This document shows positions 1,118-46,278 of a stretch of DNA of 64,000 nt, in pieces. The DNA comes from Parasphingopyxis sp. (GTDB lineage Bacteria; Pseudomonadota; Alphaproteobacteria; Sphingomonadales; Sphingomonadaceae). The notes under the pieces were generated by a model. The model ran no database searches and had not been told where the DNA came from. It saw only the letters and a program-made list of their open reading frames with translations. The DNA lies in assembly GCF_028279465.1 (NCBI RefSeq), contig NZ_JANQNS010000003.1, positions 101,386-165,385 of the forward strand, written 5' to 3'. Position numbers and translations under genes: made by a program. The stretch's first letter is position 1; each line of letters begins with the position of its first letter.

Positions 1118-1512
1118 TTTGCCTCGTATCGTTCGAGCCAGGCTTGCATCTGCGCGATTTCGGCGCTCTGGCTTTCGATGATCGTTTCGGCGAGCGCGCG
1201 CGTTTCCGGGTCTGTTCCATGTTCGAGCACGATTTCCGCCATGTCGATCGCGCCCTGATGATGCGGGATCATCATGCGCATGAAGGTTTCGTCCGGATCG
1301 TCCGACGCCGTGCCCATGTCGTGATGCATGCGCTGCATCGATTCATTGAAAGCGGCCGCAGACACGCTTTCCGGATCGCCGCCCTCGGGCATGCTCATAT
1401 GCGCATCCATCTCGGGCATCGGCTCTTCGGTTTCGGGCGCCGTCTCCATGCATCCGGCCAAGAGAATTGCGCTGGCCGGAACCATGAACCGCACAATTTT
1501 CAGCCGGATCAT
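1114..1512 (-). CDS. DUF305 family lipoprotein
   Basis: Lipobox LLAGC; HHQGAIDMA motif typical of DUF305. Confidence 0.55.
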   Translation of the reverse strand: MIRLKIVRFMVPASAILLAGCMETAPETEEPMPEMDAHMSMPEGGDPESVSAAAFNESMQRMHHDMGTASDDPDETFMRMMIPHHQGAIDMAEIVLEHGTDPETRALAETIIESQSAEIAQMQAWLERYEAN

Positions 1513-2012
1513 TTGGGCGCCAGCACCATAAGCATCTGTCGCCCTTCCATCTTCGGATGGGCTTCGGTCTTGGCGGTTTCCTTGGTGTCTTCTTGCACGC
1601 GGCGGAGGAGATCCATGCCGAGTTCGCGGTGGGAAAGCTCGCGGCCGCGGAAGCGCAGCGTCACCTTCACTTTGTCGCCATCGTCGATGAACTGGTGCAC
1701 CTTCTTCATCTTCACGTCATAATCGTGATCGTCGATGTTCGGGCGCATCTTGATCTCTTTGATGTCCTGCGTCTTTTGCGATTTCCGCGCAGCATTGGCC
1801 TTTTTCTGGGCCTCATATTTGTATTTGCCGACATCGAGGAACTTCGCGACGGGCGGATCGGCATTCGGGGAGACTTCGACAAGATCGAGGCCGACATCGG
1901 CGGCTTGCTCGATCGCTTCATTGGTCAGCAATACGCCCAGATTTTCGCCATTTTCGTCGATCACGCGGACCTTTGGCGATTGAATGAACTGATTATAGCG
2001 GGGGCCGTTCAT
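1509..2012 (-). CDS. infC: translation initiation factor IF-3
   Basis: 167 aa; conserved IF-3 sequence (VRVIDENGENLGV..., KVKVTLRFRGRE). Confidence 0.9.
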   Translation of the reverse strand: MNGPRYNQFIQSPKVRVIDENGENLGVLLTNEAIEQAADVGLDLVEVSPNADPPVAKFLDVGKYKYEAQKKANAARKSQKTQDIKEIKMRPNIDDHDYDVKMKKVHQFIDDGDKVKVTLRFRGRELSHRELGMDLLRRVQEDTKETAKTEAHPKMEGRQMLMVLAPK

Positions 2013-2306
2013 CGGCGGCGCCGCAGGGCGGCGGGAAAGTGGCTGGCGTATGTCTATGTCTCCTGCTCGGTCATGTTGCTGAGCCCATAATATATGACGC
2101 GTGCGGCGAGAATCAAAGTGAATTCAGAGACAGCGATCGGTGGCCATGTTTTCGCGCATCGCCAAGGTCCGCTAAACGTCCGGCATGCATGACGCCCGAC
2201 CGGCGTTCGATTTCCGGAAAGCCAACACGCCATCCGAGCGACATCGCGCGGCTTTAACAATTTTTAAGACATATTCCGTAGCGCTTTCTTAACAAGAGAG
2301 GTGTCG

Positions 2307-3659
2307 ATGTCGGACGAGGTTGGCGAAAAAGCTGTTTCCGAAAGGCGCGGTTTGGGCAGATATGTCCATATCGGCGCGTGGTTTGTCCTGGGCGGTCTAC
2401 TCGGCGCGCTGGGATCATTCCCTTTCGGCATGCTCGAACGTGGATTCAATTCCACCGTGTTTATGTTCGCTGAGCTCACGCGAAGCCGCTCCGATATCCT
2501 TGCTCCGATCACACGCCCAGGCGATGGCCTTGTCACATCGTCTCCCGGGGACGTGCAGCCCGGTATCACGCTCATTCAAGGTACGATGCCTGGCGGAACG
2601 CAGATCCGGCTGATCGACATCGCTGGCGAAGAATTGCACCGCTGGAATGCAGATTTTTTCGAAGCCTGGCCGGATGCCGATGATGTCTTTCCGGCAAACA
2701 GGGTGCCCAAATCGCGTTTCAATTACTTCATTCAGGGTATGCATCCGTTGCGCGACGGCTCGATCATCATGAATTTCGGCGATCTCGGGGCAATCCGCCT
2801 TGATGCCTGTTCAAATGTCGTCTGGCGGTCGGATCGCCCGATGCACCATTCCGTGACCCCAACCGGCGATGGCCGCTTCTGGATACCGGGGCACATCTCG
2901 GTTTTCGATACACCAGCCGAGTATCTGCCGCGCGGCTATACCGCCGAAGACATTCAGGAAATGCTGACAGAGGATGGATATAATAATTCCCTCCTCCTAG
3001 TGACGGCCGATGGCGAGGTGGAACGGGAAATATCTGTGCTGGAATCCGTTTTCGATGCCGGTCTGGAGCATGCCCTCTATTCGTCACTGCAAGAAACCGC
3101 GTCCGATCCCACGCATGTAAACGATATCGAGATCGTGACGCCTGAGCTTGCCGCACGCATTGACGGTGTGGAGGAAGGCGACCTGCTCATTTCGATCCGC
3201 GAAATGCATATGCTGGCCATTTTGGACGAGCATGATGGCAGGCTGAAATGGTACCAGCAGGGCCCGTGGGTGCGTCAGCACGACCCGGACATCACGCCTG
3301 CTGGCATGATCGACGTCTTCAACAATCGCTCAAGGCTGATCGGTGCCACTGTGCGGGATAGCCAGATCGTCCGTCTTGATCCCGCCACCGGAGAAACCGT
3401 GACGCTGCACCCTGTGGCCGAAGATGATCGCTTCTACACGCGGATAATGGGCGAGCATCAATTACTTGGTAACGGAAATCGTTTAATTATTGAATCGCTT
3501 GCCGGACGGGTGTTCGAAACCACCCCCGAAGGCGAGGTCGTGTGGGATTATCGCCTGCAATATGACGATGAATACGCGTCGCTATTTTCATATGCGATGC
3601 GCCTGCCGGAAAACTATTTTGAAGAGGAGGATTGGACATGTCCGCCCCAAGCCGAATGA
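2307..3659 (+). CDS. arylsulfotransferase (ASST)-like beta-propeller protein with N-terminal membrane anchor
   Basis: N-terminal TM helix; HH / HD / LLGNGNRLI motifs reminiscent of the ASST family; region has lower GC than surroundings; ATG at 2307 sits 7 nt after GAGAGG. Confidence 0.45.
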   Translation: MSDEVGEKAVSERRGLGRYVHIGAWFVLGGLLGALGSFPFGMLERGFNSTVFMFAELTRSRSDILAPITRPGDGLVTSSPGDVQPGITLIQGTMPGGTQIRLIDIAGEELHRWNADFFEAWPDADDVFPANRVPKSRFNYFIQGMHPLRDGSIIMNFGDLGAIRLDACSNVVWRSDRPMHHSVTPTGDGRFWIPGHISVFDTPAEYLPRGYTAEDIQEMLTEDGYNNSLLLVTADGEVEREISVLESVFDAGLEHALYSSLQETASDPTHVNDIEIVTPELAARIDGVEEGDLLISIREMHMLAILDEHDGRLKWYQQGPWVRQHDPDITPAGMIDVFNNRSRLIGATVRDSQIVRLDPATGETVTLHPVAEDDRFYTRIMGEHQLLGNGNRLIIESLAGRVFETTPEGEVVWDYRLQYDDEYASLFSYAMRLPENYFEEEDWTCPPQAE

Positions 3660-3892
3660 AGAAAGCCATACTGTTGGCGGCTGCGCCGGTGTTACTGCTC
3701 AATGCCAGCCCAGCTTTCGCCTATCTTGGGCCGGGATTGGGCCTGAGCGCAATCGGATCGGCGCTGAGCTTTATCGGCGTCATCCTGCTGATGATCGTCG
3801 GTTTCGTCTGGTATCCGTTGAAGCGGCTCATTGCGAAAATGCGCGGAAAGGGCACGCCGGCTGAACCGGCGGAGGACCGGAACAACCAATGA
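3638..3892 (+). CDS. small membrane protein (signal/TM)
   Basis: GAGGAGG RBS 8 nt upstream; two hydrophobic segments; overlaps upstream gene stop. Confidence 0.5.
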   Translation: MSAPSRMKKAILLAAAPVLLLNASPAFAYLGPGLGLSAIGSALSFIGVILLMIVGFVWYPLKRLIAKMRGKGTPAEPAEDRNNQ

Positions 3893-4269
3893 TCTTGGCC
3901 TATGCCGCCAGCTGTCTGCTCTTCGCGCTGGCATTTCATAATCTTCGCATAATCGACAAGACGCGTGAACTGCTCGCCAGTCTCAACGCATCTTTCCGCG
4001 TCATCTCCGATCGCACGATGAGCGATCTCGAAAAGGAAGTCGCGATACGGCGCGGCGCCTTGCGATCCGGGGGCGATGCGGTGAAGCTCGCCTTCTTTTT
4101 CCTGGTGACGGCTGCTGCGGGCGCACTACCGGTGGCTGCCGGGCTCTATGCGAATCTGTACACGTTCGAGGCCTTTTTATGGTTTTCGCTCGAACCGCTG
4201 GTCCTGATCGGGACATGCGTGATTTTCGGCGGATATGCCTGGGCCATCGCGCGGTTGAGGACCAGCTGA
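3889..4269 (+). CDS. hypothetical membrane protein (3-4 TM)
   Basis: Start overlaps upstream stop (ATGA); hydrophobic helices. Confidence 0.5.
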   Translation: MILAYAASCLLFALAFHNLRIIDKTRELLASLNASFRVISDRTMSDLEKEVAIRRGALRSGGDAVKLAFFFLVTAAAGALPVAAGLYANLYTFEAFLWFSLEPLVLIGTCVIFGGYAWAIARLRTS

Positions 4270-4273
4270 GCCG

Positions 4274-5341
4274 ATGGCGCTGGAAGATTATGGCTGGCTG
4301 GACCGGTCCATTCACCGGATCGCTTTCGGCACGAAGGTGCCCCAGGATTTTCTGCTCGACATGGAAGAGCGCCGCTACGGCGACCATATCGCGCGGCAAG
4401 AGATCGTTTCGCCGATATTCGTCACCGGGCTCGCCCGGGCGGGAACGACGCTGGTGCTCGAAACGCTCGCGCGGCACCCGCAACTCGCCACCCATCGCTA
4501 TCGGGATATGCCTTTCGTAATATCGCCGATTATCTGGCGCGACCTGTCCGGCCGGTTCCAGGTCGCGCAGGAAAAGAAGGAGCGCGCGCACAAGGACGGG
4601 CTGGAGGTGAACACCGATAGCGCCGAAGCCTTTGAAGAGGTGTTGTGGATGCGCGCCTTTCCCGATCACTTTGGCAAGGATGGCATCAAGCTTTGGGACA
4701 CGCTTCCGAGCGCGTTTGTCAAAGATTTCCGTCGTCATATGCAGCGCGTGATTGTCGCGCGGGACGCCAAGGGCAGTGCGCAGCCGCGCTATCTTTCCAA
4801 AAATAACGGCAACATTTCCCGGCTGCCGGCGCTCAAAAACGCCTTTCCCGATGCCAGGGTCGTTGTGCCGCTACGGCATCCGCTCGATCATGCGCGCTCG
4901 CTTTTGAAACAGCACCAGCTCGCATCGCAATCGCATGCGGAAAGCGGCTTTGCGCGCAGTTACGTTTCCGATATCGGGCATTTCGAATTTGGCGATGTTC
5001 ATCGCCCTTTTTTGTTCGAAGGCATGTCCGAGATCGTTCGGGATTATAGCCCCGATGACTATGCCTATTGGCTTCATTACTGGATCGCAGCCCACCGGCA
5101 TCTGGCGGGGCAAAGCGATATCGAGATCGTCGATATGGAGCGGTTTACGAACGAACGGCATATCGCAGACCTGCTCGCGCGCCTCGAACTCGATCCCTGC
5201 GCCGATGTTGTCCGGAGCGCGCAGGAGCAGATCAGACCGATAAAGCGCTATGACGGATCGCCTGATGCGGACGCTGAAACGGTAGAGGCGGCGATGGCGA
5301 TCTATGAACAGATGCGCAACCGCAAAGACTGCCTGCTTTAG
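4274..5341 (+). CDS. PAPS-dependent sulfotransferase family protein
   Basis: 5'-PSB-like TGLARAGTT and 3'-PB-like RHPLD motifs; 355 aa. Confidence 0.65.
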   Translation: MALEDYGWLDRSIHRIAFGTKVPQDFLLDMEERRYGDHIARQEIVSPIFVTGLARAGTTLVLETLARHPQLATHRYRDMPFVISPIIWRDLSGRFQVAQEKKERAHKDGLEVNTDSAEAFEEVLWMRAFPDHFGKDGIKLWDTLPSAFVKDFRRHMQRVIVARDAKGSAQPRYLSKNNGNISRLPALKNAFPDARVVVPLRHPLDHARSLLKQHQLASQSHAESGFARSYVSDIGHFEFGDVHRPFLFEGMSEIVRDYSPDDYAYWLHYWIAAHRHLAGQSDIEIVDMERFTNERHIADLLARLELDPCADVVRSAQEQIRPIKRYDGSPDADAETVEAAMAIYEQMRNRKDCLL

Positions 5342-5423
5342 GACGGCGATCGGCCATAGGGTCGCTAACCCGTCCTTAACCGTAAATCTCTAGTTTCTTC
5401 GGCGAAACTTCGTTCGAGGCCCC

Positions 5424-6962
5424 ATGTTCGCATCACTCTCAATGGGGCCATTTGGCCCACCGAATACGGCTTCGCGGCAGCTGTCGCAAATAGGCCTGTT
5501 CGTGCCCGCGATCGCCCTTTTCGTGGTCGTCAACCTGCTCAATCCCAGCGGCTATCGTGGTGCCGGCGGCGATGACTGGTATTATCTGGAGGCGGCGCGA
5601 TGCTTGGCAGAGGGTGGGGCGTGCCTGCCGACGACGCATTGGGAAACCCGCTGGCCGGTCACGGCCCCGCTAGGCTGGAGCCTCGCGCTTTTCGGCGAAA
5701 GCCGCCTTTCGGTATCGCTGGTGCCGCTTCTCTACTCACTAACGGCGCTCGGGCTGTTCGCCGTGCTGATGGTGCGGCAGTTTGGTCGTGCCGCTGCGGG
5801 CATCGGCCTGTTCTGCCTCATCGCGACCCCTGCGCTCGCGCAGAGTTTTTTGCGCCCCAATCCGGGCCTGCCTGAGTTATGTTTCGCCCTCGCCTCGCTC
5901 CTGGCTATCCAGGGCGCGGCACGCGCGGGGAACGATCGGTGGATGATGGTGTTGCTGTCATTGGCCGGTGCGTCGCTCGCCATCGCGATTGCCTGCCGCG
6001 CGACATCCATCGTGCTGCTGCCGCCTGCCGCTTTGCTCGTAATCATCGTCGCCGGGTTTTCGACACGCGCGATGATGGCGTTTGTGGGCGGCATATTGGC
6101 GCCGCTATTGCTACAATCCTGCTTCTACCTGTTGGCGACCGGCGATCCGCTTTTCAATTGGCGCCTCGCGCTCGGCCATACCCGCATTGCGTCCACCGAA
6201 TTATTGCCGGGTACGGATACAAGCCGATCGCCGCTCTTCAATCCAGACTTTATTGACGGATGGCGTCCGGCCAGTGGCATTGAGGTGCACTGGACCCTCG
6301 ATCCGTTGCTGAACCTTCTCGCCCATCCCCATGTTGCGCTTGCTCTTGTCCTGCCGGTGATTTTCGCGCTGATCTGGAAAGCGCAGGCCGGCCGGTTCCA
6401 TCCTCTTACGCCGGTGGTGGCCGGCCTGTTCCTGTTCGGCGCCTATTATTTCGCCGCTCTCGCCTATGGGCTGGCCGTTGATCCAAAACCCCGCATGTTC
6501 TTCCCCGTGGCCGCCGCGGGCGCCGCGATCATGGGCGCGGTGGGCAGTGCCTCGTGGCGCAGCAGGGGTAAGCTACCATTGCTTGGCGCCATGGCGCTTT
6601 TCGGGGCGAATGCGCTGTTGATATCCGCACAGTATCTCGACATCCGGCCGCTGGAACGCGAGGCGCGTCACTGGGCGGCGCAGGGCCGGAACAGCCTGGC
6701 AACCGACGAAATGACATGGCGCATCCTGACACTGGAGCCCGCCGTTCATGCGCTCACACATACCGATGCCGATCGTGCGGCGCGGCTAATTGCCGTGTTC
6801 GAAGGGCAGTGTGATGCGCAGTCCGGCCGCCTGCCTAACGGGCGCTGGCATGTGACGCGTGAAACCGTGCACCGTTCCAGCCCTGCCATGCAGCTGGGCG
6901 ATCTCGTGCCGGCTGGACGGCGCCCGCTGGTGCTGTGCCTTTTTGAGAGGGTTTCGACCTAG
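5424..6962 (+). CDS. GT-C fold glycosyltransferase (GT39/GT83, ArnT/PMT-like) membrane protein
   Basis: Multi-TM; N-terminal periplasmic-loop motif [10 protein letters not shown] resembles the DE-x-YY-E-A motif of the ArnT/PMT family. Confidence 0.5.
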
Positions 6963-8899
6963 CGCAAGTCTGGCGGTGTTGCCTCTCCGCCAATCATCTC
7001 CACCGCCTCATCGAGCGGCATCACCTTCTGGTGCTTGTCGGAGCCCAGCTGACGTAGCGCGATTGTACCCTCTTCCGCCTCGCGCTTGCCGACAACGAGG
7101 AGATTTGGCACTTTGGCATGGCTGTGTTCGCGCACCTTATAGTTGATCTTCTCGTTCCGAAGATCGGATTCGACGCGGATACCCGCGGCCTTGAGCGTGG
7201 CAACAACCTCTTGCGCATAGTCATCGGCGTCCGAGACGATAGTGGCAACCACCGCCTGCACTGGTGCCAGCCACAGAGGCAATTTTCCGGCATAGTGCTC
7301 GATCAGAATGCCGATAAACCGTTCCAGCGAACCGAAGAGCGCGCGGTGCAGCATGACCGGGCGATGGCGCTCGCCATCCTCGCCGATATAGCCGATGTCG
7401 AAGGCTTCGGGCAGGTTCATATCGACCTGCAGCGTGCCGCACTGCCAATCGCGGCCAATCGCATCGCGCAACACGAACTCCAGCTTTGGTCCGTAAAACG
7501 CGCCTTCGCCCTCATTGATTGAATATTCGAGGTCCATAGCGTCGAGTGTATCGATCAGCGAGCCTTCAAGCACGTCCCAGACTGCGTCTGAACCCATGCG
7601 GTTTTCCGGTCGCGTCGAAAGCTTGAGCCGCACATCCTCAAAACCAAACTCGCGATAGATATCGAGTACGAGCGCAACCACGTCTCGGTTCTCATCATTG
7701 AGCTGCTCGGGTGTGCAAAAGATATGCGCATCATCTTGCGTAAAATGCCGTACCCGCATGAGACCATGCAGCGCTCCTGACGGTTCATAGCGGTGCACCT
7801 TGCCGAATTCGGCCATGCGCAGCGGCAGATCGCGATAGCTTTTCAGGCCATGGGCGAATAGCGACACGCCGCCGGGGCAGTTCATCGGTTTCAAGGCAAA
7901 GACGCGGTCATCTTCGGTTTGCGTCGTGAACATATGCTCATGATAGTTGAACCAATGGCCCGAGGTTTCCCACAAGCTACGGTCCATCACGTCGGGCGTG
8001 TTCACCTCGACATAACCGGCGCGCTCCTGCCGGCGGCGCATATAGGCGATCAAACCCCGGAACAGGTGCCAGCCATTGGGGTGCCAGAAGACCGCGCCGG
8101 GCGCGAATTCCTCGAAATGGAACAGGTCGAGCTCGCGGCCCAGTTTGCGATGGTCGCGCTTGGCGGCTTCCTCGAGCCGGTGGAGATGCGCCTTGAGCTG
8201 TTTCTTGTTGAGCCAGGCGGTGCCATAGACACGGCTCAGCATCGCGTTCTTCTGATCGCCGCGCCAATAGGCCCCGGCCACGCGCATGAGCTTGAAGGCC
8301 TGCGGGTCGAGCTTGCCGGTACTGGCCAGATGCGGCCCGCGACACATGTCCATCCAGTCATCACCCGACCAATAGACGGTGATCTCCTCGCCCTCGGGCA
8401 ATTCCTTGGCCCATTCGGCCTTGAAGCTTTCGCCGTCCTTTTCCCAGCGCTCGATCAGCGCGTCGTGCTCCCAGACTTCGCGGCGCAACGGTTTGTCGGC
8501 CTTGATGATCCGCCGCATCTCTTCCTCGATTGCGGGCAGGTCTTCCTCAGTCAGCGGCTCTTTCGGCGCGAAATCGTAATAGAAGCCATCCTCGGTCGCG
8601 GGGCCGAAGGTAATCTGCGTGCCGGGAAAGAGGTTTTGCACGGCCTCGGCCAGCACATGGGCGAAGTCATGCCGGACGAGTTCGAGCGCATCGGCCTCGT
8701 CGCGCGAGGTAATCAGTTCCAGCGCGGCATCGCCATCGAAGGGCCGGCCGATATCGCGCACTTCTCCATCGACGCGCGCGGCCAGCGCGGCCTTGGCGAG
8801 CCCGGGGCCGATCGCGGCGGCAACATCGGCCGGCGTGGCCCCGGCTTCCATCTCGCGCACCGATCCATCGGGCAGGCTGATCTTGAACATCTCGCTCAT
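6959..8899 (-). CDS. thrS: threonine--tRNA ligase
   Basis: TGS domain start [10 protein letters not shown]; class II aaRS core; ORF-track upstream extension is probably not translated. Confidence 0.92.
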
Positions 8900-9268
8900 G
8901 ACATTTTCTCGTCCTGTTTGCGCGCCGCCATGGCACAGCATGGCCCGCGCTTGAAGAGCGGTGTGAAGCTTGGTTGCCGATTTTCGGGAGGACACCGCAC
9001 CACCCGAAACCGGGTGGCGAATGCTGCGACCTAGGCCGCGACCATCCGTCCCCGGGGATCCGAGGTCGTAGTGGTCGTGCGCGTGGTCAGCAAAATGGCC
9101 ATGCGCGTCATATAGCGATGCTATGTTGCGATGTCACTAACGGCCAAGATTAGGCCGTTGGCGGTGGCTTGTCGGTCATCTACCGATGGGGCACCATGGT
9201 GGGATGACCGACAGCCATCATCGCGCGCGTTTTAGCGAGAGAAGGCCCTGGAAGGAGGATTGGTAGAC

Positions 9269-9888: not shown

Positions 9889-10347
9889 TTAGCTCAGCGG
9901 CGCGCTGGCGAAGAGGACGCCGAAGGCGCGGCACCAGATCACGACGGAACGGTGATTGCCGTCGAGCGCGCCGGCCGGGATCACATAGCTCTGATTGCCG
10001 CGACTGCGCTGCAAACGGCCGAGATCGACATGGTTGGCGCGGCGCGCATGGCGTTCGCTGCGGACGCTGGCGGCATCGGTCACCCAGACGCGCAGGTCCG
10101 GACCGCCGGTCACCGAAAAATCTTCGAGTTGCACGACGAGATCGCCATTCGCCCGGCGGACGAGACGCGCGGTTCCGCTGGACCGGTGCGATCGGCCGAC
10201 ACCGCGGAACTGGCCGGACGCGACGGTCTCGGCGCCGCTCTGCGCGATTGCGGCAGATGGAGACGCGCCGGTGGAGAGCGGAACCGCAAGGGCCGCCAAT
10301 GCGATGGCTGAGGCGGCACCATAAGAGAATGTGCGAAACAGGGGCAT
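9889..10347 (-). CDS. DM13 domain-containing protein (secreted)
   Basis: Signal peptide; DM13-like pattern GQFRGVGRSH...GPDLRVWV. Confidence 0.55.
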   Translation of the reverse strand: MPLFRTFSYGAASAIALAALAVPLSTGASPSAAIAQSGAETVASGQFRGVGRSHRSSGTARLVRRANGDLVVQLEDFSVTGGPDLRVWVTDAASVRSERHARRANHVDLGRLQRSRGNQSYVIPAGALDGNHRSVVIWCRAFGVLFASAPLS

Positions 10348-10457
10348 GGTCGGTCCTTTGTTAGCGCCGCCAAAATTGCGGACTGACCGGGCTTCGCATC
10401 GGGGCTGTTGGAGGTTACAGCCATGCGCGAATCGCCTGCACCGGGAGAGGCTGCCGA

Positions 10458-11207
10458 ATGACCGAACTGCGCTATCATGAGCGGGCCGACCGGCCGCGCC
10501 TTGCCTATCGTCATCGCGAGGGAATAGGGCCGACGCTCGTCTTCCTGCCCGGCTATATGTCCGACATGACGGGCTCCAAGGCGAGTGCGATCATGGCCTA
10601 TGCCGAAGCGGAGAACCGGGCCTGCCTGCTGCTCGACTATGCCGGATGCGGATCGAGCGACGGCGATTTCGAAGCGCAGAAACTCACCGACTGGCGCGAC
10701 GATGTGATGGATCTCGTAAATGCGCTGGTGCTCGGGCCGGTCGTGCTGATCGGCTCGTCAATGGGCGGCTGGCTGATGCTGCTCTGCGCGCTTGCGCATC
10801 CTGAACGGGTGTCGGCGCTGGTCGGAATCGCGGCGGCGCCCGATTTCACGGACTGGGGCTTCACGCAGGACGAGAAGCTAACGATCCTGCGCGACGGCCG
10901 GCTCGAACAGCCATCCGATTATGACGATTCCCCCTATGTCACCACGCGCACCTTTTTCGAAAGCGGCGAAGCGAGCCGGTTGCTCGGCACGGAAATCGCC
11001 ATCGATTGCCCGGTGCGGCTGATCCATGGCCAGCAGGATCGCGATGTCCCATGGGAATATTCGGTCCGGCTCGCCCGGCAGCTGCGTTCAGCCGACGTCC
11101 ATGTCACGCTCGTCAAGGATGCCGATCACCGGCTGTCGCGCATCGAAGATGTCGCACGGCTATTGGCCCAGATCGAATGGCTGCTCGAAAGCCTGAAAGC
11201 GTCCTGA
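10458..11207 (+). CDS. alpha/beta hydrolase
   Basis: GSSMGG nucleophile elbow; 249 aa. Confidence 0.75.
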   Translation: MTELRYHERADRPRLAYRHREGIGPTLVFLPGYMSDMTGSKASAIMAYAEAENRACLLLDYAGCGSSDGDFEAQKLTDWRDDVMDLVNALVLGPVVLIGSSMGGWLMLLCALAHPERVSALVGIAAAPDFTDWGFTQDEKLTILRDGRLEQPSDYDDSPYVTTRTFFESGEASRLLGTEIAIDCPVRLIHGQQDRDVPWEYSVRLARQLRSADVHVTLVKDADHRLSRIEDVARLLAQIEWLLESLKAS

Positions 11208-11208
11208 C

Positions 11209-12093
11209 TTGAGTTTCGCCCTGTTCCTTGCCGCGTTCCAGGCGGCGCCGCCACCCGTCGATCCGATCCTCATTCCGCCGCGCGAAGAGGCACAGCAGGG
11301 CGATCAGACGCTGGCCATGGCCTCGGCCCAGCGATTGCTCAATTGCATGCGGCTGGCTGAGAGCGATCCCGGCGCGGCGATTGCCGAGGGCGCGCGTTGG
11401 GCGCTGACCGATGGCGGCATCGAGGCCGAGCTTTGTCTCGGCGTCGGCCATGAATATAGCGGCGACTGGGATAGCGCCGAAACCGCCTATCTGCGGGCGC
11501 ACGGTCTCGCGGAGTCGGCGGACGACACGCGCGCTATCGGTATCCTCGCCAATGCCGCGCGCATGACGCTGCGCAAGGGCGATGCGGCGACGGCGCGCAC
11601 GCGTTTCGATACCGTGCTTGCCGATACCGAGCTGAGCGATGAAGTACGCGGCAATGTGCTGCTCGAACGGGCGCAGGCGCATGTGGAACTGGAGAACGGA
11701 ACCGCCGCGCAGACAGACCTGATCGCGGCACAGGCACTGCTCCCGAACGACAGTATCGTCTGGCTATTGTCCGCTACGTTGGCGCGGCGTCAGGGTGATT
11801 TCGATACCGCGGGCGATTTCATCGATCGCGCGCTCGAGCTCGATCAGACCGATCCGGCGATCCTGCTCGAGGCCGGCAATATCGCGATCGGACTCAACGC
11901 TTATGCTATTGCGCGCGAAGCCTGGGGTCAGGCGGTTGCGGCCGAGCCCGAAAGCCCGGCCGGCCAAACGGCCGCACGCAACATTGAACGGCTCGATGCA
12001 CTGCTGGCCGCAGCTCCAGGGGTGCCGGTGGAGCTTCCGGAGGCGGATGATGTGGAACCCGCCTCTTCGGCACCTGATGCTCCTCAGCCCTAA
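11209..12093 (+). CDS. tetratricopeptide repeat protein
   Basis: TPR-like helical repeats; TTG start is uncertain. Confidence 0.5.
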   Translation: MSFALFLAAFQAAPPPVDPILIPPREEAQQGDQTLAMASAQRLLNCMRLAESDPGAAIAEGARWALTDGGIEAELCLGVGHEYSGDWDSAETAYLRAHGLAESADDTRAIGILANAARMTLRKGDAATARTRFDTVLADTELSDEVRGNVLLERAQAHVELENGTAAQTDLIAAQALLPNDSIVWLLSATLARRQGDFDTAGDFIDRALELDQTDPAILLEAGNIAIGLNAYAIAREAWGQAVAAEPESPAGQTAARNIERLDALLAAAPGVPVELPEADDVEPASSAPDAPQP

Positions 12094-12836
12094 CCCAGAT
12101 AGAAATCGATCGTCGTGACGACGCGGACCAGCTTGTAGGGCGTGTCCGCGACGCCATAGCCGCCGGCATCACCGTCCCGCGCGGAGATCGAGAAATAGCC
12201 CTGCGTCGCGCTGCGAATGCTGCCGACATTGGTGCCGCTATCCTCGGCGAACTGGTTGGCCGATGCGCGCGCATCCTGCGTCGCTTCGGCGACCATTTCG
12301 GGCTTGATCTCATTCAATCGCGTGAAGGTGAAGCTCATGCCCGACCCCTCTTCGAGCACCACGCCGCGGCGCACGAGATCGAACTGACGGGCGACGGCGT
12401 TTTGCGCACGCTCGATATCGGTGGTGCGGAGCTGCAGCCGCTGCCGGATCGTATAAGTCTGCTGGCCCATATTGTTGGAGTATTGCGAGACGTTGACGCC
12501 CGATGGCTGCAGCGCCTCGGCCTCAAAGCCCAGTTCGCCGAAAAAAGCGCGGATCGCTTCGGTATCGCGATCGATATCGTTTTGCGCTTCGGCGAGGTTC
12601 GACGAGCGGGCCGAATAGGAAATGGTCCAGGTCGCGAGATCGGCGGTGACTTCGCGCTCGGCGAGGCCGCGGACCGTAACCGAGCGTTCGGCCATTTGCG
12701 CGCGCAGCAGTCCGTCGCCGAGCAGATAGCCGCCCGCGATAATGCTGAGGCCCAGCATGCCGCTTGCGATCAGGATGGTGCGCGTCGGGGGGTTACGCCA
12801 TGTCCAGTTCGGTGTGTCGTTTGTGTCTTCGGTCAT
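12090..12836 (-). CDS. SIMPL domain-containing protein (DUF541)
   Basis: N-terminal TM then a periplasmic SIMPL-like domain. Confidence 0.6.
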   Translation of the reverse strand: MTEDTNDTPNWTWRNPPTRTILIASGMLGLSIIAGGYLLGDGLLRAQMAERSVTVRGLAEREVTADLATWTISYSARSSNLAEAQNDIDRDTEAIRAFFGELGFEAEALQPSGVNVSQYSNNMGQQTYTIRQRLQLRTTDIERAQNAVARQFDLVRRGVVLEEGSGMSFTFTRLNEIKPEMVAEATQDARASANQFAEDSGTNVGSIRSATQGYFSISARDGDAGGYGVADTPYKLVRVVTTIDFYLG

Positions 12837-12989
12837 CGGTCTCACCCCTTATTGGGCGCATGCCGGCGCTTTTCCTCGTACCGGCCTGCGGCTATCGTGC
12901 GACCCGATATCGAAAACCGCTATGCAGCGTCAGAGATGAACCGTTGCTGACTTGCGACGAACCGTTGATCGAATAGAGGGCATATGCCG

Positions 12990-13421
12990 ATGAAATATCT
13001 CCACACGATGATCCGGGTATCGGATATCGACGCGACGCTCGCCTTTTTCGATCTGCTCGGATTGAAGGAGCTGAAGCGCTATGACGTCGAAGCCGGCCGG
13101 TTCACGCTGGTGTTCCTTGCCGCGCCCGGCGACGAGGATGCGCAAATCGAGCTGACCTACAATTGGCCGCCTGAAGATGGCGAACCGGAAGACTATGACG
13201 GCGGTCGCAATTTCGGCCATCTCGCCTATGCGGTCGACGATATCTACGACATTTGCCAGCGGCTGATGGACGGCGGCGTCACGATCAATCGCCCGCCGCG
13301 CGACGGGCGCATGGCCTTTGTCCGCACGCCCGATTCGATATCGATAGAGCTTTTGCAGAAGGGGTCGGCGAAAGCGCCGGCCGAGCCCTGGGCGTCGATG
13401 GAGAATGTCGGCGAGTGGTAA
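12990..13421 (+). CDS. gloA: lactoylglutathione lyase (glyoxalase I)
   Basis: [10 protein letters not shown]..., VOC fold; 143 aa. Confidence 0.85.
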
Positions 13422-32581: not shown

Positions 32582-32941
32582 TCTTACTCCATCTTAAAAC
32601 TAGCTCACGCTCGTTTTCCTTTCATTGGTTTCACGTCACATTTCCCCGAATCAAAAAAGATCCGGGGACCGGTGGCATGCCGCATGGCGGGCGGGCCGGA
32701 GCGGGTGTTGCAGTATCCGGGGCGGATCGGGACGGTTCGAAAACCAGGTCCGTCTCGACCCCGGAACGGCGCAACCTTCACGGCCAACCGAGCCAGTTGG
32801 CATGGTGGCGGACGCATCGCCCTTGCCCGTCCATCGCCCGCAGGCGATTTCGAGGCGCAGGTTTTGCGCCTTTCACATGCCGATCCCCGAACCCGTTAAG
32901 TTGCAAAACAGATTTTCAGTCTGTCTGGTCTTCGCAGGACC

Positions 32942-33014
32942 AATTTGGAGCAGGAGTCGAACCTGCGACAGCAAGATTAACAATCTTGTGCTCTACCCAC
33001 TGAGCTATCCAAGT
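32942..33014 (-). tRNA. tRNA-Asn (GTT)
   Basis: Hand-folded cloverleaf: D-arm TAGCTCAGTGGGTAGAGC; anticodon loop TTGTTAA; T-arm GCAGG-TTCGACT-CCTGC; 6 of 7 acceptor pairs (C2-A71 mismatch); no encoded CCA. Confidence 0.6.
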
Positions 33015-33084
33015 CTGAGACGGGATTCGAACCCGTTCCTCTAGCACCCGAAGCTAGCGCTCTATCCAAATGAGCTACAAAGCA
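33015..33084 (-). pseudogene. tRNA-Pro(CGG)-like fragment lacking a pairable acceptor stem
   Basis: D-arm, anticodon arm (loop TTCGGGT) and T-arm (ACGGG-TTCGAAT-CCCGT) recognisable; 3' acceptor strand missing or overlaps tRNA-Asn; 5' strand cannot pair. Confidence 0.4.
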
Positions 33085-44612: not shown

Positions 44613-45500
44613 TTGCGGATGAGCGGCGTTTTCACGACACGTTTTGCCCCCAGCCCGACCGGGCGGCTCCATCTCGGCCATGCCTATTCGGCGCTGATGG
44701 CGTTCGATGCCGCACGCGCGGAGGGCGGGAAGTTTCTGCTGCGGTTCGAAGATATCGATACCGGCCGGGTGCGCGACGAATATTATGCTGCGATCGAAGA
44801 AGACCTGCACTGGCTCGGCATCACATGGGACGAGGAGCCGATACGCCAGTCCGAGCGGTTCGATATCTATGCGAAGGCGCTGGAAGATCTGCGGGCGGGA
44901 GACGTCGTCTATCCCTGTTTCTGCACGCGCAAGGATATTGCTACCGAGATCGCTGCGAGCGCGAGCGCGCCGCATGGCCCGGATGGCCCTCTATACCCCG
45001 GTACATGCCGCCGGCTTGATGCCGGGGAGCGCGCGCACCGTCTGGCCAACGAACCGCATGCCTGGCGCATCGATATGACGCGCGCGGCTGCGCTGACCGG
45101 GCCGCTTTATTGGACCGATGCCGAGGCCGGGGAAGTCGAGGCGCAGCCCGAAATCCATGGCGATGTCGTACTGGCGCGCAAAGATGTGCCTACATCCTAT
45201 CATCTCGCTGTCACCATCGACGACGCGGCGCAGGGTATCACCGATGTGATCCGCGGGTCCGACCTGATCGCCGCGACGCATGTGCACCGGCTGCTACAAC
45301 ATCTGCTGGACCTGCCGGTGCCGCGCTATCGGCATCACGAGCTTATCGCGGACGAGACGGGCAAACGGCTCGCCAAGCGCGACGATGCTCGTTCGCTGGC
45401 GGCCTTGCGTGATGCGGGCTGGTCAGGTGAAAAGGTCGCCGAAATGTTGAAAGGCGATGGCGTTGGCCTTGCCGCCGGGCTTCAGTCGAAAAGGGGGTGA
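44613..45500 (+). CDS. gluQ: tRNA glutamyl-Q(34) synthetase
   Basis: Class I HIGH motif (PSPTGRLHLGHA); truncated GluRS-like; about 290 aa. Confidence 0.85.
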   Translation: MRMSGVFTTRFAPSPTGRLHLGHAYSALMAFDAARAEGGKFLLRFEDIDTGRVRDEYYAAIEEDLHWLGITWDEEPIRQSERFDIYAKALEDLRAGDVVYPCFCTRKDIATEIAASASAPHGPDGPLYPGTCRRLDAGERAHRLANEPHAWRIDMTRAAALTGPLYWTDAEAGEVEAQPEIHGDVVLARKDVPTSYHLAVTIDDAAQGITDVIRGSDLIAATHVHRLLQHLLDLPVPRYRHHELIADETGKRLAKRDDARSLAALRDAGWSGEKVAEMLKGDGVGLAAGLQSKRG

Positions 45501-46153
45501 TCGCGCCTCAGGAAAACCACGTCATAATAGGTAGGCCGGCGCTTGAGCTTCCCGATGATATTGAAGAATTCCAGACCTCGCTCATGCATCGCGGCGACCA
45601 GTTCGCTGAACACATATCCGCCTATAAAGCGCTTCCGTATGCTCGCTTCGCAGATAACGAAAGAAATGCGGTGTGCGTGCTCGTTCAACCCTTTGATTAT
45701 CTGCTCCTCAAAGCCTTCTGTATCGATCTTCAGGCCAATCCACCCCGTCGGCGCATATTGTTCGATGAGCGAATCCAGCGTCACGACCTCGACGTCATAT
45801 TCATCCCTGAGTACGCCCTGACTGAGTTTTGTGCGCTCGACGAAACCCGTCTTCGGTCCCATTTCGTGCAGCAGCATAGAGCCTGGTTGAGCCCCCAGCG
45901 CCTTATTGACGAAAATCGAATTTTCAGGCGGGTCAAGAGCATGGATTCGGTCGTTCTTTATCGGGTCGACAAGAACAAATTTGCTTTCAGTGAACACGGT
46001 ATAGAGCTCGGGCGTGCCTCGAAAAACGCCGATATCGAATACCGTCGCTATATCCTCAAATTTTTTGAGCATAGCGAGCCCGAACAGTTGTTGTGGGCGT
46101 GCTCCTATATTTGGGTCCGTTAGGCCGGGCTCTTGTTCCTCTGTATCACTCAT
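45482..46153 (-). CDS. FkbM family methyltransferase
   Basis: LKIDTEGFE motif; locally AT-richer sequence. Confidence 0.65.
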   Translation of the reverse strand: MSDTEEQEPGLTDPNIGARPQQLFGLAMLKKFEDIATVFDIGVFRGTPELYTVFTESKFVLVDPIKNDRIHALDPPENSIFVNKALGAQPGSMLLHEMGPKTGFVERTKLSQGVLRDEYDVEVVTLDSLIEQYAPTGWIGLKIDTEGFEEQIIKGLNEHAHRISFVICEASIRKRFIGGYVFSELVAAMHERGLEFFNIIGKLKRRPTYYDVVFLRRDHPLFD

Positions 46154-46278
46154 TGCGTAACTTCCGTGTATTCAGGCCCCCTTTTGTGCCGGCCAATGAT
46201 CGTATCGTATATAGCCCAGCATTTCTTCCAAACGCCAAGCAGGCTGGCTTTCGCGCGTATCGCCACTATATTCAAGCC

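Follow-up and report, generated by a model that had tools for sequence, protein, structure and literature searches.

The window analysed here, the whole of a 64,000-nt stretch of Parasphingopyxis sp. (order Sphingomonadales; contig NZ_JANQNS010000003.1, positions 101,386 to 165,385; coordinates below are on the forward strand of the window), carries five intact open reading frames (ORFs) on its + strand at 2301-6962, bounded by infC and thrS, both on the - strand. The ORF listing places these five ORFs where the initial annotation of this DNA had placed them, and all five of its family guesses were borne out: the first ORF encodes a beta-propeller protein resembling arylsulfate sulfotransferases (ASST; PF14269), the fourth a sulfotransferase of the type that uses 3′-phosphoadenosine-5′-phosphosulfate (PAPS; PF13469) and the fifth a GT-C glycosyltransferase of the GT39/PMT_2 family (PF13231), each above the Pfam cut-off, and the second (86 aa, termed sm1) and third (126 aa, termed sm2) contain hydrophobic segments. 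Neither sm1 nor sm2 has a Pfam match, and no NCBIfam model matches any of the five proteins. Genes 1-4 are referred to as the cassette, and compared loci are given L-numbers where they need to be told apart.

The four cassette genes are tightly packed (Table 1). The ASST stop codon (3657-3659) falls within the start region of sm1 (ATG 3638 or 3656), the sm1 stop and the sm2 start overlap as ATGA (3889-3892), and 4 nt separate the sm2 stop from the sulfotransferase start; from these overlapping or 4-nt-spaced codons, genes 1-4 (2301-5341) are predicted to be a translationally coupled operon. The GT39 gene follows after 82 nt and, as had been noticed, its stop codon overlaps that of thrS as CTAG (6959-6962). 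The GC content of the window is 62.3% and that of genes 1-4 together ~57%, with 55.9% for the ASST-like gene (62% at third codon positions, GC3) and 58.5-59.0% for sm1, sm2 and the sulfotransferase gene. The lower GC content ascribed to all five genes in the initial annotation is thereby found for genes 1-4 (55.9-59.0%), and not for the GT39 gene, which at 63.6% GC and 73% GC3 is like ordinary genes of the window. The AT-rich string TATAATAATTCCC singled out in the same context was located at 2979-2991, within the ASST-like gene. The flanking infC has 55.4% GC overall, yet a normal GC3 (72%).

Table 1 Features of the infC-thrS interval and its flanks, in window coordinates
Feature	Position	Strand	Remarks
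infC (translation initiation factor IF-3), left flank	1509-2012	-	PF05198 and PF00707; 99% amino acid identity to infC of L068
Sigma-70-like promoter match TTGATT-16-TATATT, upstream of infC	2087-2116	-	Promoter scan; consensus match only
Segment absent from L068	2118-6958		All five + strand genes inside; L068 has a ~35-95 bp spacer instead
ASST-like gene, 452 aa	2301-3659	+	PF14269; probable start ATG 2307, giving 450 aa
sm1, 86 aa	3632-3892	+	Probable start ATG 3638, ribosome-binding site GAGGAGG; overlaps 3′ end of ASST gene
sm2, 126 aa	3889-4269	+	Three hydrophobic segments; start overlaps sm1 stop
PAPS-type sulfotransferase, 355 aa	4274-5341	+	PF13469
GT39/PMT_2 GT-C glycosyltransferase, 512 aa	5424-6962	+	PF13231; NCBI start 5502, giving 486 aa
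thrS, right flank	6959-8995	-	Four ThrRS Pfam domains; P0196 100% identical

Distribution and neighbours of the cassette

A scan of one genome per species recovered 61 loci with relatives of the ASST-like gene. A sulfotransferase gene adjoins the ASST gene in 44 of these 61 loci, and 9 of the 17 remaining loci are interrupted by contig ends. The hosts include Alphaproteobacteria (Sphingomonadales, Rhodobacterales, Hyphomicrobiales, Rhodospirillales and Kordiimonadales), several gammaproteobacterial orders, Desulfocapsaceae (Desulfobacterota), Myxococcota and Sumerlaeota. The contexts are unrelated, with flanking genes that vary by lineage, and one copy lies on a Paroceanicella plasmid, where RefSeq names the products arylsulfotransferase family protein, hypothetical, hypothetical and sulfotransferase. 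Pairwise identities of the ASST-like proteins and of the sulfotransferases are strongly correlated (r = 0.93 over 946 pairs; 0.74 in the close group), and in other hosts the GC content of the cassette minus that of its flanks has a median of -0.75 points. Two subfamilies can be distinguished: group A, with at least 39% identity to the ASST-like protein of the window and an sm2 of ~130 aa, and group B, with 26-30% identity and a membrane protein of ~240 aa (sometimes 154 aa) in the position of sm2. Homology between sm2 (126 aa) and the ~240-aa product of the group B middle gene was considered and rejected, none being detectable (hhalign probability 1.5%).

Insertion of the cassette into a core translation gene cluster was also seen elsewhere. 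Nine Sphingomonadales genomes have it in the reverse orientation between rplK-rplA and nusG-secE, where it splits the normally contiguous secE-nusG-rplKAJL cluster (L002/L013 at 10001-13009, also L004, L005, L006, L007, L009, L011, L012 and L024; hosts are Croceicoccus, Altererythrobacter, Aurantiacibacter, two Sphingomicrobium species and metagenome-assembled genomes, MAGs). Both Sphingomonadales insertion sites, infC-thrS and rplKA/nusG-secE, are core translation gene clusters.

The genes next to the cassette are variable. An 8-kb block in a Myxococcota MAG (L027, 7000-15000), with 29-37% GC between flanks of 57-73% GC, holds cysD and cysN-cysC (ATP sulfurylase and adenosine 5′-phosphosulfate (APS) kinase), the cassette with a fused sm2-sulfotransferase gene, and a PF00884 protein with six transmembrane (TM) segments; from its gene content and composition this block may be a self-contained package for making and using PAPS, on an island acquired very recently, or else a product of chimeric assembly. 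An APS-kinase-like gene also adjoins the cassette in L045 and L046 (two Inquilinus genomes) and in L057 (Chelatococcus). These genes (L045/L046 9035-9817, L057 13495-14265) encode 256-260-aa fusions of an APS-kinase-like P-loop domain and a cytidylyltransferase-like (HxGH-type) domain, scoring under all curated NCBIfam cut-offs, and the fusion may be a compact, unusual enzyme of PAPS synthesis or of nucleotide-sulfate metabolism. The expectation that PAPS genes would be among the commonest neighbours was not borne out, PAPS genes being linked in 4 loci only. Recurrent upstream genes of 640 and 450 aa (clusters c4 and c50) appear, from motifs recognised by eye, to encode a sensor kinase and a response regulator of the sigma-54 type. 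In five group A loci the cassette lies beside a polytopic membrane PF00884 protein with the architecture of LtaS, OpgB and EptA, and in these cassette-linked proteins the CxPxR formylglycine (sulfatase) motif was not found at the expected place. Genes for MdoG/OpgD were seen nearby in three group B loci, and genes for formylglycine-type sulfatases (c45) and for CPBP proteases in three loci each. No carrier-synthesis gene (type III polyketide synthase, PKS) was found in the cassette or among the recurrent neighbours within ~7-9 kb. By their predicted functions the variable neighbours suggest that the cassette depends on PAPS and has to do with the cell envelope, without identifying the acceptor.

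Predicted properties of the cassette proteins

The ASST-like protein matches PF14269 (Arylsulfotran_2) with E=1.2e-34, above the curated cut-off, and has a single hydrophobic segment (residues 24-42) at its N-terminus, followed by the propeller. In the AlphaFold2 model (predicted local distance difference test, pLDDT, 88.5) a TM helix and an amphipathic helix precede the propeller and there is no beta-sandwich. The best Foldseek matches of the model are Cpz4 (9kf6/9kf4; E=2e-15 for 9kf6) and then the E. coli ASST (3elq, E=5e-12). Cpz4, with ~18% identity to the protein of the window, was also found when the family profile was compared with the PDB (E=1e-7), with the DxxHxN, R and QHD motifs aligned; a sequence-profile match to the E. 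coli ASST in the PDB was sought, and none appeared even at E<=10, Cpz4 being the only match. In all 68 of 68 sequences compared, drawn from both subfamilies, the same eleven residues recur without change (H182, H183, H272, N274, R300, Q326, H327, D328, D330, R403 and E406), and a Cys170/Cys447 pair is kept in group A only. In the E. coli enzyme the corresponding residues are His252, His356-x-Asn358, Arg374 and the transiently sulfated His436 (PMC13426309); H182/H183, H272-x-N274, R300 and Q-H327-D have the same order and residue types. The protein is predicted to be anchored by one TM helix at the outer face of the inner membrane, with its propeller in the periplasm.

ASST-like paralogues, two or three per locus and mostly in tandem, were observed in L007, L024, L026, L037, L055, L059 and L060; the two copies in L026 lie on opposite strands ~3.4 kb apart. 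Since L026, L037 and L055 have no adjoining sulfotransferase gene, the propeller family appears to have diversified beyond the cassette.

The sulfotransferase encoded by the fourth gene matches PF13469 (Sulfotransfer_3) with E=8.4e-15 and 56 bits against a cut-off of 27, and it has no hydrophobic segment. Both expected PAPS-binding motifs are present: R55, G57 and T59 of the 5′-phosphosulfate-binding loop FVTGLARAGTT are invariant (44/44), and in the 3′-phosphate-binding motif RHPLDHARS (R201-x7-S209) R201 is kept in 44/44 and S209 in 43/44 sequences. H106, E118, E121, E122, H236 and E238 are also invariant. Matches to structural databases are weak, with the phosphosulfate-binding loop aligning to 2zq5 (a sulfotransferase of M. 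tuberculosis) and the phosphate-binding motif to 3rnl. From its motifs and hydrophobicity profile this protein is predicted to be a cytoplasmic sulfotransferase of the PAPS-dependent type.

The two small membrane proteins, treated as incidental in the initial annotation, stand out in sequence comparisons (single-sequence and trimmed-profile searches) as the components with the strongest conservation and the most distinctive character. sm1 has two hydrophobic segments and is laid out as a signal peptide, A-x-A, Y-L-G-P-G-L-G, one TM segment, W-Y-P-L-K-R and a basic tail. Its family comprises 1572 representative clusters at 50% identity, nearly all of 70-130 aa. The motif Y-x-G-[PAVS]-G-x-G is found in 145 of the 150 best representatives; position -1 before it is Ala in 144 of them and position -3 in 123, and after it come a single TM segment and G-F-x-W-Y-P-x-K-R. 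Conservation is poor in the hydrophobic leader. Both subfamilies retain the motif, and sm1 lies downstream of the ASST gene in ~47 loci, usually overlapping it. A canonical signal-peptidase I site is predicted, with the conserved tyrosine immediately after it, and cleavage there would give a protein of ~58 aa that crosses the membrane once and has the invariant tyrosine as its N-terminal residue on the periplasmic side. An 85-aa ORF upstream of a PF00884 gene in Ferrimonas was considered as an sm1 paralogue and rejected.

sm2 has three hydrophobic segments and a conserved loop, SD.EKE, that is predicted to be cytoplasmic, and 21 homologues were found among the group A loci. In L010, L025 and L027 (a Paracoccaceae MAG, a Ca. 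Thiodiazotropha MAG and the Myxococcota MAG, respectively) sm2 and the sulfotransferase share one reading frame, with sm2 as the N-terminal part, and these fusions place the C-terminus of sm2 in the cytoplasm and the sulfotransferase at the membrane surface.

History of the infC-thrS interval

The nearest relative by thrS, L068 (94% amino acid identity for thrS, 99% for infC), has the same neighbourhood (DUF305-infC-thrS...DSBA), with a thrS-infC gap of ~120 bp and no gene between. The adjacency of infC and thrS, expected in the initial annotation from its occurrence in many bacteria, accordingly holds for the closest relative found, and the block was shown by this synteny comparison to be accessory. 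BLASTN aligned window 1134-2064 with L068 10982-10052 and window 6959-9143 with L068 9956-7758; to the left of the junction a weak homology can be followed by eye to ~2117, ending at a common GAATCAAAG. As the BLASTN alignments break at window 2064/2118 and 6958/6959, ~4.84 kb here replaces a short spacer. The genes of this segment are also absent from two more relatives, L069 and L070. The hexamers TTGATT/TATATT of the promoter-like match upstream of infC can also be read in the L068 spacer, and this match is kept from the ancestral thrS-infC spacer.

Absence from close relatives and deviant GC content, two marks of a genomic island, are both found for the cassette; the borders of the segment carry only 6-nt chance repeats and none longer, and no tRNA target and no integrase or transposase ORF was found nearby. 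In thrS the sliding identity to L068 is 0.68-0.86 in the 400 bp by the junction and 0.92-0.97 further in, a dip that is suggestive of a recombination tract, though not conclusive. On this comparative evidence the cassette is, in all probability, horizontally acquired, and its GC content, ~5 points lower here as against a median of -0.75 relative to the flanks elsewhere, indicates a comparatively recent arrival. Among 5.8 billion proteins the ASST-like protein has a 100% match in Parasphingopyxis sp., and the next best matches have only 60-63% identity.

The GT39 gene has a different history. Its product matches PF13231 (PMT_2) with E=2.3e-8 and 34.9 bits against a cut-off of 26.1, has at least 10 hydrophobic segments, and in its AlphaFold2 model (pLDDT 87.8) resembles ALG12/ALG9, ArnT, OST/PglB and Pmt4 by Foldseek; the acidic motif of the first extracytoplasmic loop consists of an invariant D50 and of D51, which is kept in at least 90% of sequences. 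It is thereby predicted, from fold and motif, to be a genuine GT-C enzyme. The best identity among its homologues is 44%. Among two other Sphingomonadales with GT39 at this site, L072 has the order infC-GT39-thrS and L065 (Sphingomonas sp. IBVSS2) the order infC-GT39-GNAT-UPF0060-thrS, with GT39 on the + strand and infC and thrS on the - strand in both, and neither carries the sulfotransferase genes. Between the window and these two loci the identity is 41-44% for GT39 and 67-68% for thrS, and between L072 and L065 it is 47% and 74%, respectively; these values fit a fast-evolving, vertically inherited GT39 gene. Homologues of this GT39 are missing from all 60 other ASST loci. Since GT39 is absent there, has orthologues at this very site without the cassette, and has a host-like GC content, the conserved unit is the four genes, without glycosylation, and the GT-C enzyme, counted in the initial annotation as a member of the module, is to be taken out of it. 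The most economical account is that the cassette landed between infC and an already resident GT39 gene, and that the L068 lineage lost GT39 or never had it; alternatively, all five genes may have been imported as a single block from an unsampled donor with the same synteny. The case shows that adjacency can mislead, GT39 looking operon-linked while being the older resident of the site.

Several further features of the window were recorded. A second indel lies no more than 2.5 kb from the cassette, at 9143-9243, where L068 and L069 have an adh_short gene (short-chain dehydrogenase, ~246 aa) between the DSBA-like gene and thrS that is missing here (~850 bp in L068, ~100 bp in the window). The NCBI product of thrS has 646 aa, which puts its start near 8899-8902. 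infC of L068 starts 9 codons further upstream, at an ATG (MTRRPAAPPM...); because the homologous upstream codon in the window is CTT (2012-2039, - strand), infC here probably starts at the internal ATG 2012 or at a non-canonical start. At 45431-46171 the GC content falls to 51-52%, and 230-aa ORFs on the two strands overlap; this patch may be a further insert of foreign DNA. A tRNA-Asn(GTT) gene lies at 32941-33015 (- strand), and 4 nt further on a partial tRNA-like Rfam match (33019-33078, 44 bits, model positions 7-64) for which ARAGORN gives no call may be a truncated duplicate from an old integration site.

A possible sulfuryl relay and the alternatives

PAPS-independent aryl sulfotransferases have been the subject of biocatalyst studies for decades. 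To our knowledge, no periplasmic sulfation route is known in bacteria, because PAPS is found in the cytoplasm only. A full-text search of the searchable literature library found no description of the cassette, nor of bacterial periplasmic sulfation. According to a 2026 review, the natural substrates and physiological roles of aryl sulfotransferases (ASTs) are unknown (PMC13426309). The initial annotation had regarded the joint occurrence of a PAPS-dependent and a PAPS-independent sulfotransferase as not described, a view corrected by a precedent: in caprazamycin biosynthesis Cpz8 sulfates triketide pyrones, which become the donors for Cpz4 (Tang et al. 2013, as cited in PMC4257720). Both enzyme families and the two-step principle are therefore already known, and the novelty lies in an architecture that spans the membrane, in the sm1 and sm2 families, in the missing carrier synthase and in the wide distribution.

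By analogy, the cassette may carry out the two-step sulfation of Cpz8/Cpz4 across a membrane, a reading that is preferred here although its probability is put slightly below even. sm2 would tether the sulfotransferase to the cytoplasmic face of the inner membrane, where the tethered enzyme would use PAPS to sulfate a membrane-associated carrier (candidates are a membrane phenol or enol, or the sm1 tyrosine); sm1 and sm2 would then help the carrier sulfate ester to reach the periplasmic face, and the ASST-like enzyme would take the sulfuryl group onto H327 in a ping-pong reaction and give it to an envelope or periplasmic acceptor. Such a relay would consequently allow sulfation in a compartment without PAPS. 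The general idea of a relay between the two sulfotransferases, put forward in the initial annotation, is in this form retained as a model, and the ASST likeness of the 452-aa protein, the accessory nature of the block and the PAPS motifs of the 355-aa protein all agree with what had been proposed. Counted in support are the intact motifs, the predicted opposite sidedness of the two enzymes, the tethering, the obligatory small membrane partners, the co-inheritance, the occasional co-transfer with PAPS genes and the envelope enzymes that recur as neighbours.

The closest known system, Cpz8/Cpz6/Cpz4 of Streptomyces sp. MK730-62F2, likewise encodes a PAPS sulfotransferase together with a PAPS-independent ASST-type enzyme, and Cpz4 is the best match in sequence and structure to the 452-aa protein. 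It differs in being cytoplasmic and part of an antibiotic gene cluster, with a type III PKS of its own to make the pyrone carrier; the cassette has no PKS and instead has a TM-anchored ASST-like enzyme predicted to be extracytoplasmic, a tethered sulfotransferase and two integral small membrane proteins. AssT of E. coli CFT073 (3ELQ) shares the beta-propeller, the His, His-x-Asn, Arg and catalytic His types, the predicted periplasmic location and, with the close subfamily, a Cys pair, whereas it is a soluble homodimer exported by a signal peptide, has an extra N-terminal beta-sandwich, and has DsbL/DsbI and no PAPS sulfotransferase as operon partners. ArnT with ArnE/ArnF, and LtaS/OpgB/EptA, are alike in logic only, with cytoplasmic activation on a membrane carrier, translocation by small proteins and periplasmic transfer; the GT39 protein of the window is structurally ArnT-like, and membrane PF00884 enzymes adjoin the cassette in five loci. 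sm1 and sm2 show no homology to ArnE/ArnF or to any Pfam family, and the group moved would be sulfuryl. We know of no lipid-linked sulfuryl carrier in bacteria.

Several points weigh against the relay. The cassette lacks a gene for carrier synthesis, whereas the Cpz system has the type III PKS Cpz6; neither sm1 nor sm2 is similar to any known flippase or transporter that could move a sulfate ester across the membrane; and enzymatic activity is on record for none of the members. All three sm2-sulfotransferase fusions come from MAGs, 8 loci have an ASST-like gene without a sulfotransferase gene nearby, and the third gene differs between the subfamilies with no homology detectable at the hhalign probability given above. 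The residue match to the E. coli ASST consists of motif order and the Cpz4 alignment, with no direct alignment to 3ELQ, and the periplasmic position of the propeller is deduced from one TM helix and the Cys pair of the close group only.

Alternatively, the sulfotransferase may act on sm1 itself, as target or carrier. In this reading, considered unlikely though by no means negligible, the invariant tyrosine of pre-sm1 would be sulfated in the cytoplasm in the manner of RaxST or of tyrosylprotein sulfotransferase (TPST), and the sulfated protein, after export and cleavage, would either be the final product or serve the ASST-like enzyme as donor. The absence of a carrier-synthesis gene from the cassette agrees with this, as do the position of sm1, always after the ASST gene and usually overlapping it, and the A-x-A directly before Y-[IV]-G-P-G-x-G in 145 of the 150 best representatives, a motif found in both subfamilies; moreover, ASTs accept tyrosine and tyrosine peptides (PMC13426309). 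RaxST/RaxX and TPST are comparable in that a Sulfotransfer_3-type PAPS enzyme is encoded next to a small protein that is exported and has a conserved tyrosine, although sm1 is a membrane protein rather than a secreted peptide, has no peptidase-ABC exporter and is accompanied by an ASST-like enzyme. One sulfate per translated protein would be costly, however, and the gene overlap suggests a stoichiometric complex rather than a consumable substrate; the likeness shown between the sulfotransferase and TPST is a Pfam family in common, and cleavage of the signal peptide is only predicted. A related proposal, judged quite unlikely, is that sm1 serves as a protein-borne sulfuryl carrier within an ASST-sm1-sm2-sulfotransferase membrane complex that would bring sulfate from PAPS to the periplasm, its N-terminal tyrosine, laid bare by cleavage of the signal peptide, being the physiological phenol co-substrate of the ASST-like enzyme.

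The two enzymes could also act independently, the propeller being a hydrolase or scavenger that detoxifies or desulfates environmental aryl sulfates or draws sulfate from them, with an unrelated metabolite as the acceptor of the cytoplasmic enzyme. The substrates of E. coli ASST are believed to be phenolic sulfates of external origin, and ASTs behave like sulfatases when no acceptor is present (PMC13426309); formylglycine-type sulfatases near some loci and the eight ASST-like loci without a sulfotransferase gene point the same way. The strict gene order, the overlapping genes, the strong co-variation of ASST and sulfotransferase, the sm2 fusions that tether the sulfotransferase, and the co-transfer of cysDNC with the cassette make independent action improbable. 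Lowest in probability among the readings is that of all five genes as one module that glycosylates and sulfates an envelope glycoconjugate. They are co-directional, the 82-nt gap before GT39 contains no terminator-like site, both the cassette and GT39 are missing from L068, and the polytopic, periplasm-facing PF00884 enzymes that adjoin the cassette elsewhere make a variable fifth envelope enzyme conceivable; against this stand the 60 other loci without a GT39 homologue, the orthologues of L072 and L065 at infC-thrS without the cassette, with identities relative to thrS as for vertical descent, and the GC content, host-like for GT39 and ~5 points lower for the cassette.

In coupling an inner-face PAPS enzyme to a predicted outer-face ASST-like enzyme, the cassette makes the questions of AST function and of periplasmic sulfation directly testable, and the sm1 family, with >1,500 clusters at 50% identity and an invariant tyrosine, is a candidate for the missing link. 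Should sm1 prove to be the carrier, this would be the first extracytoplasmic sulfation mechanism in bacteria and would provide the first natural ASST donor outside antibiotic biosynthesis. If the relay model is true, the cassette would stand for a novel type of envelope modification among marine and soil Proteobacteria, and natural donor/acceptor pairs would become available for ASST biocatalysis.

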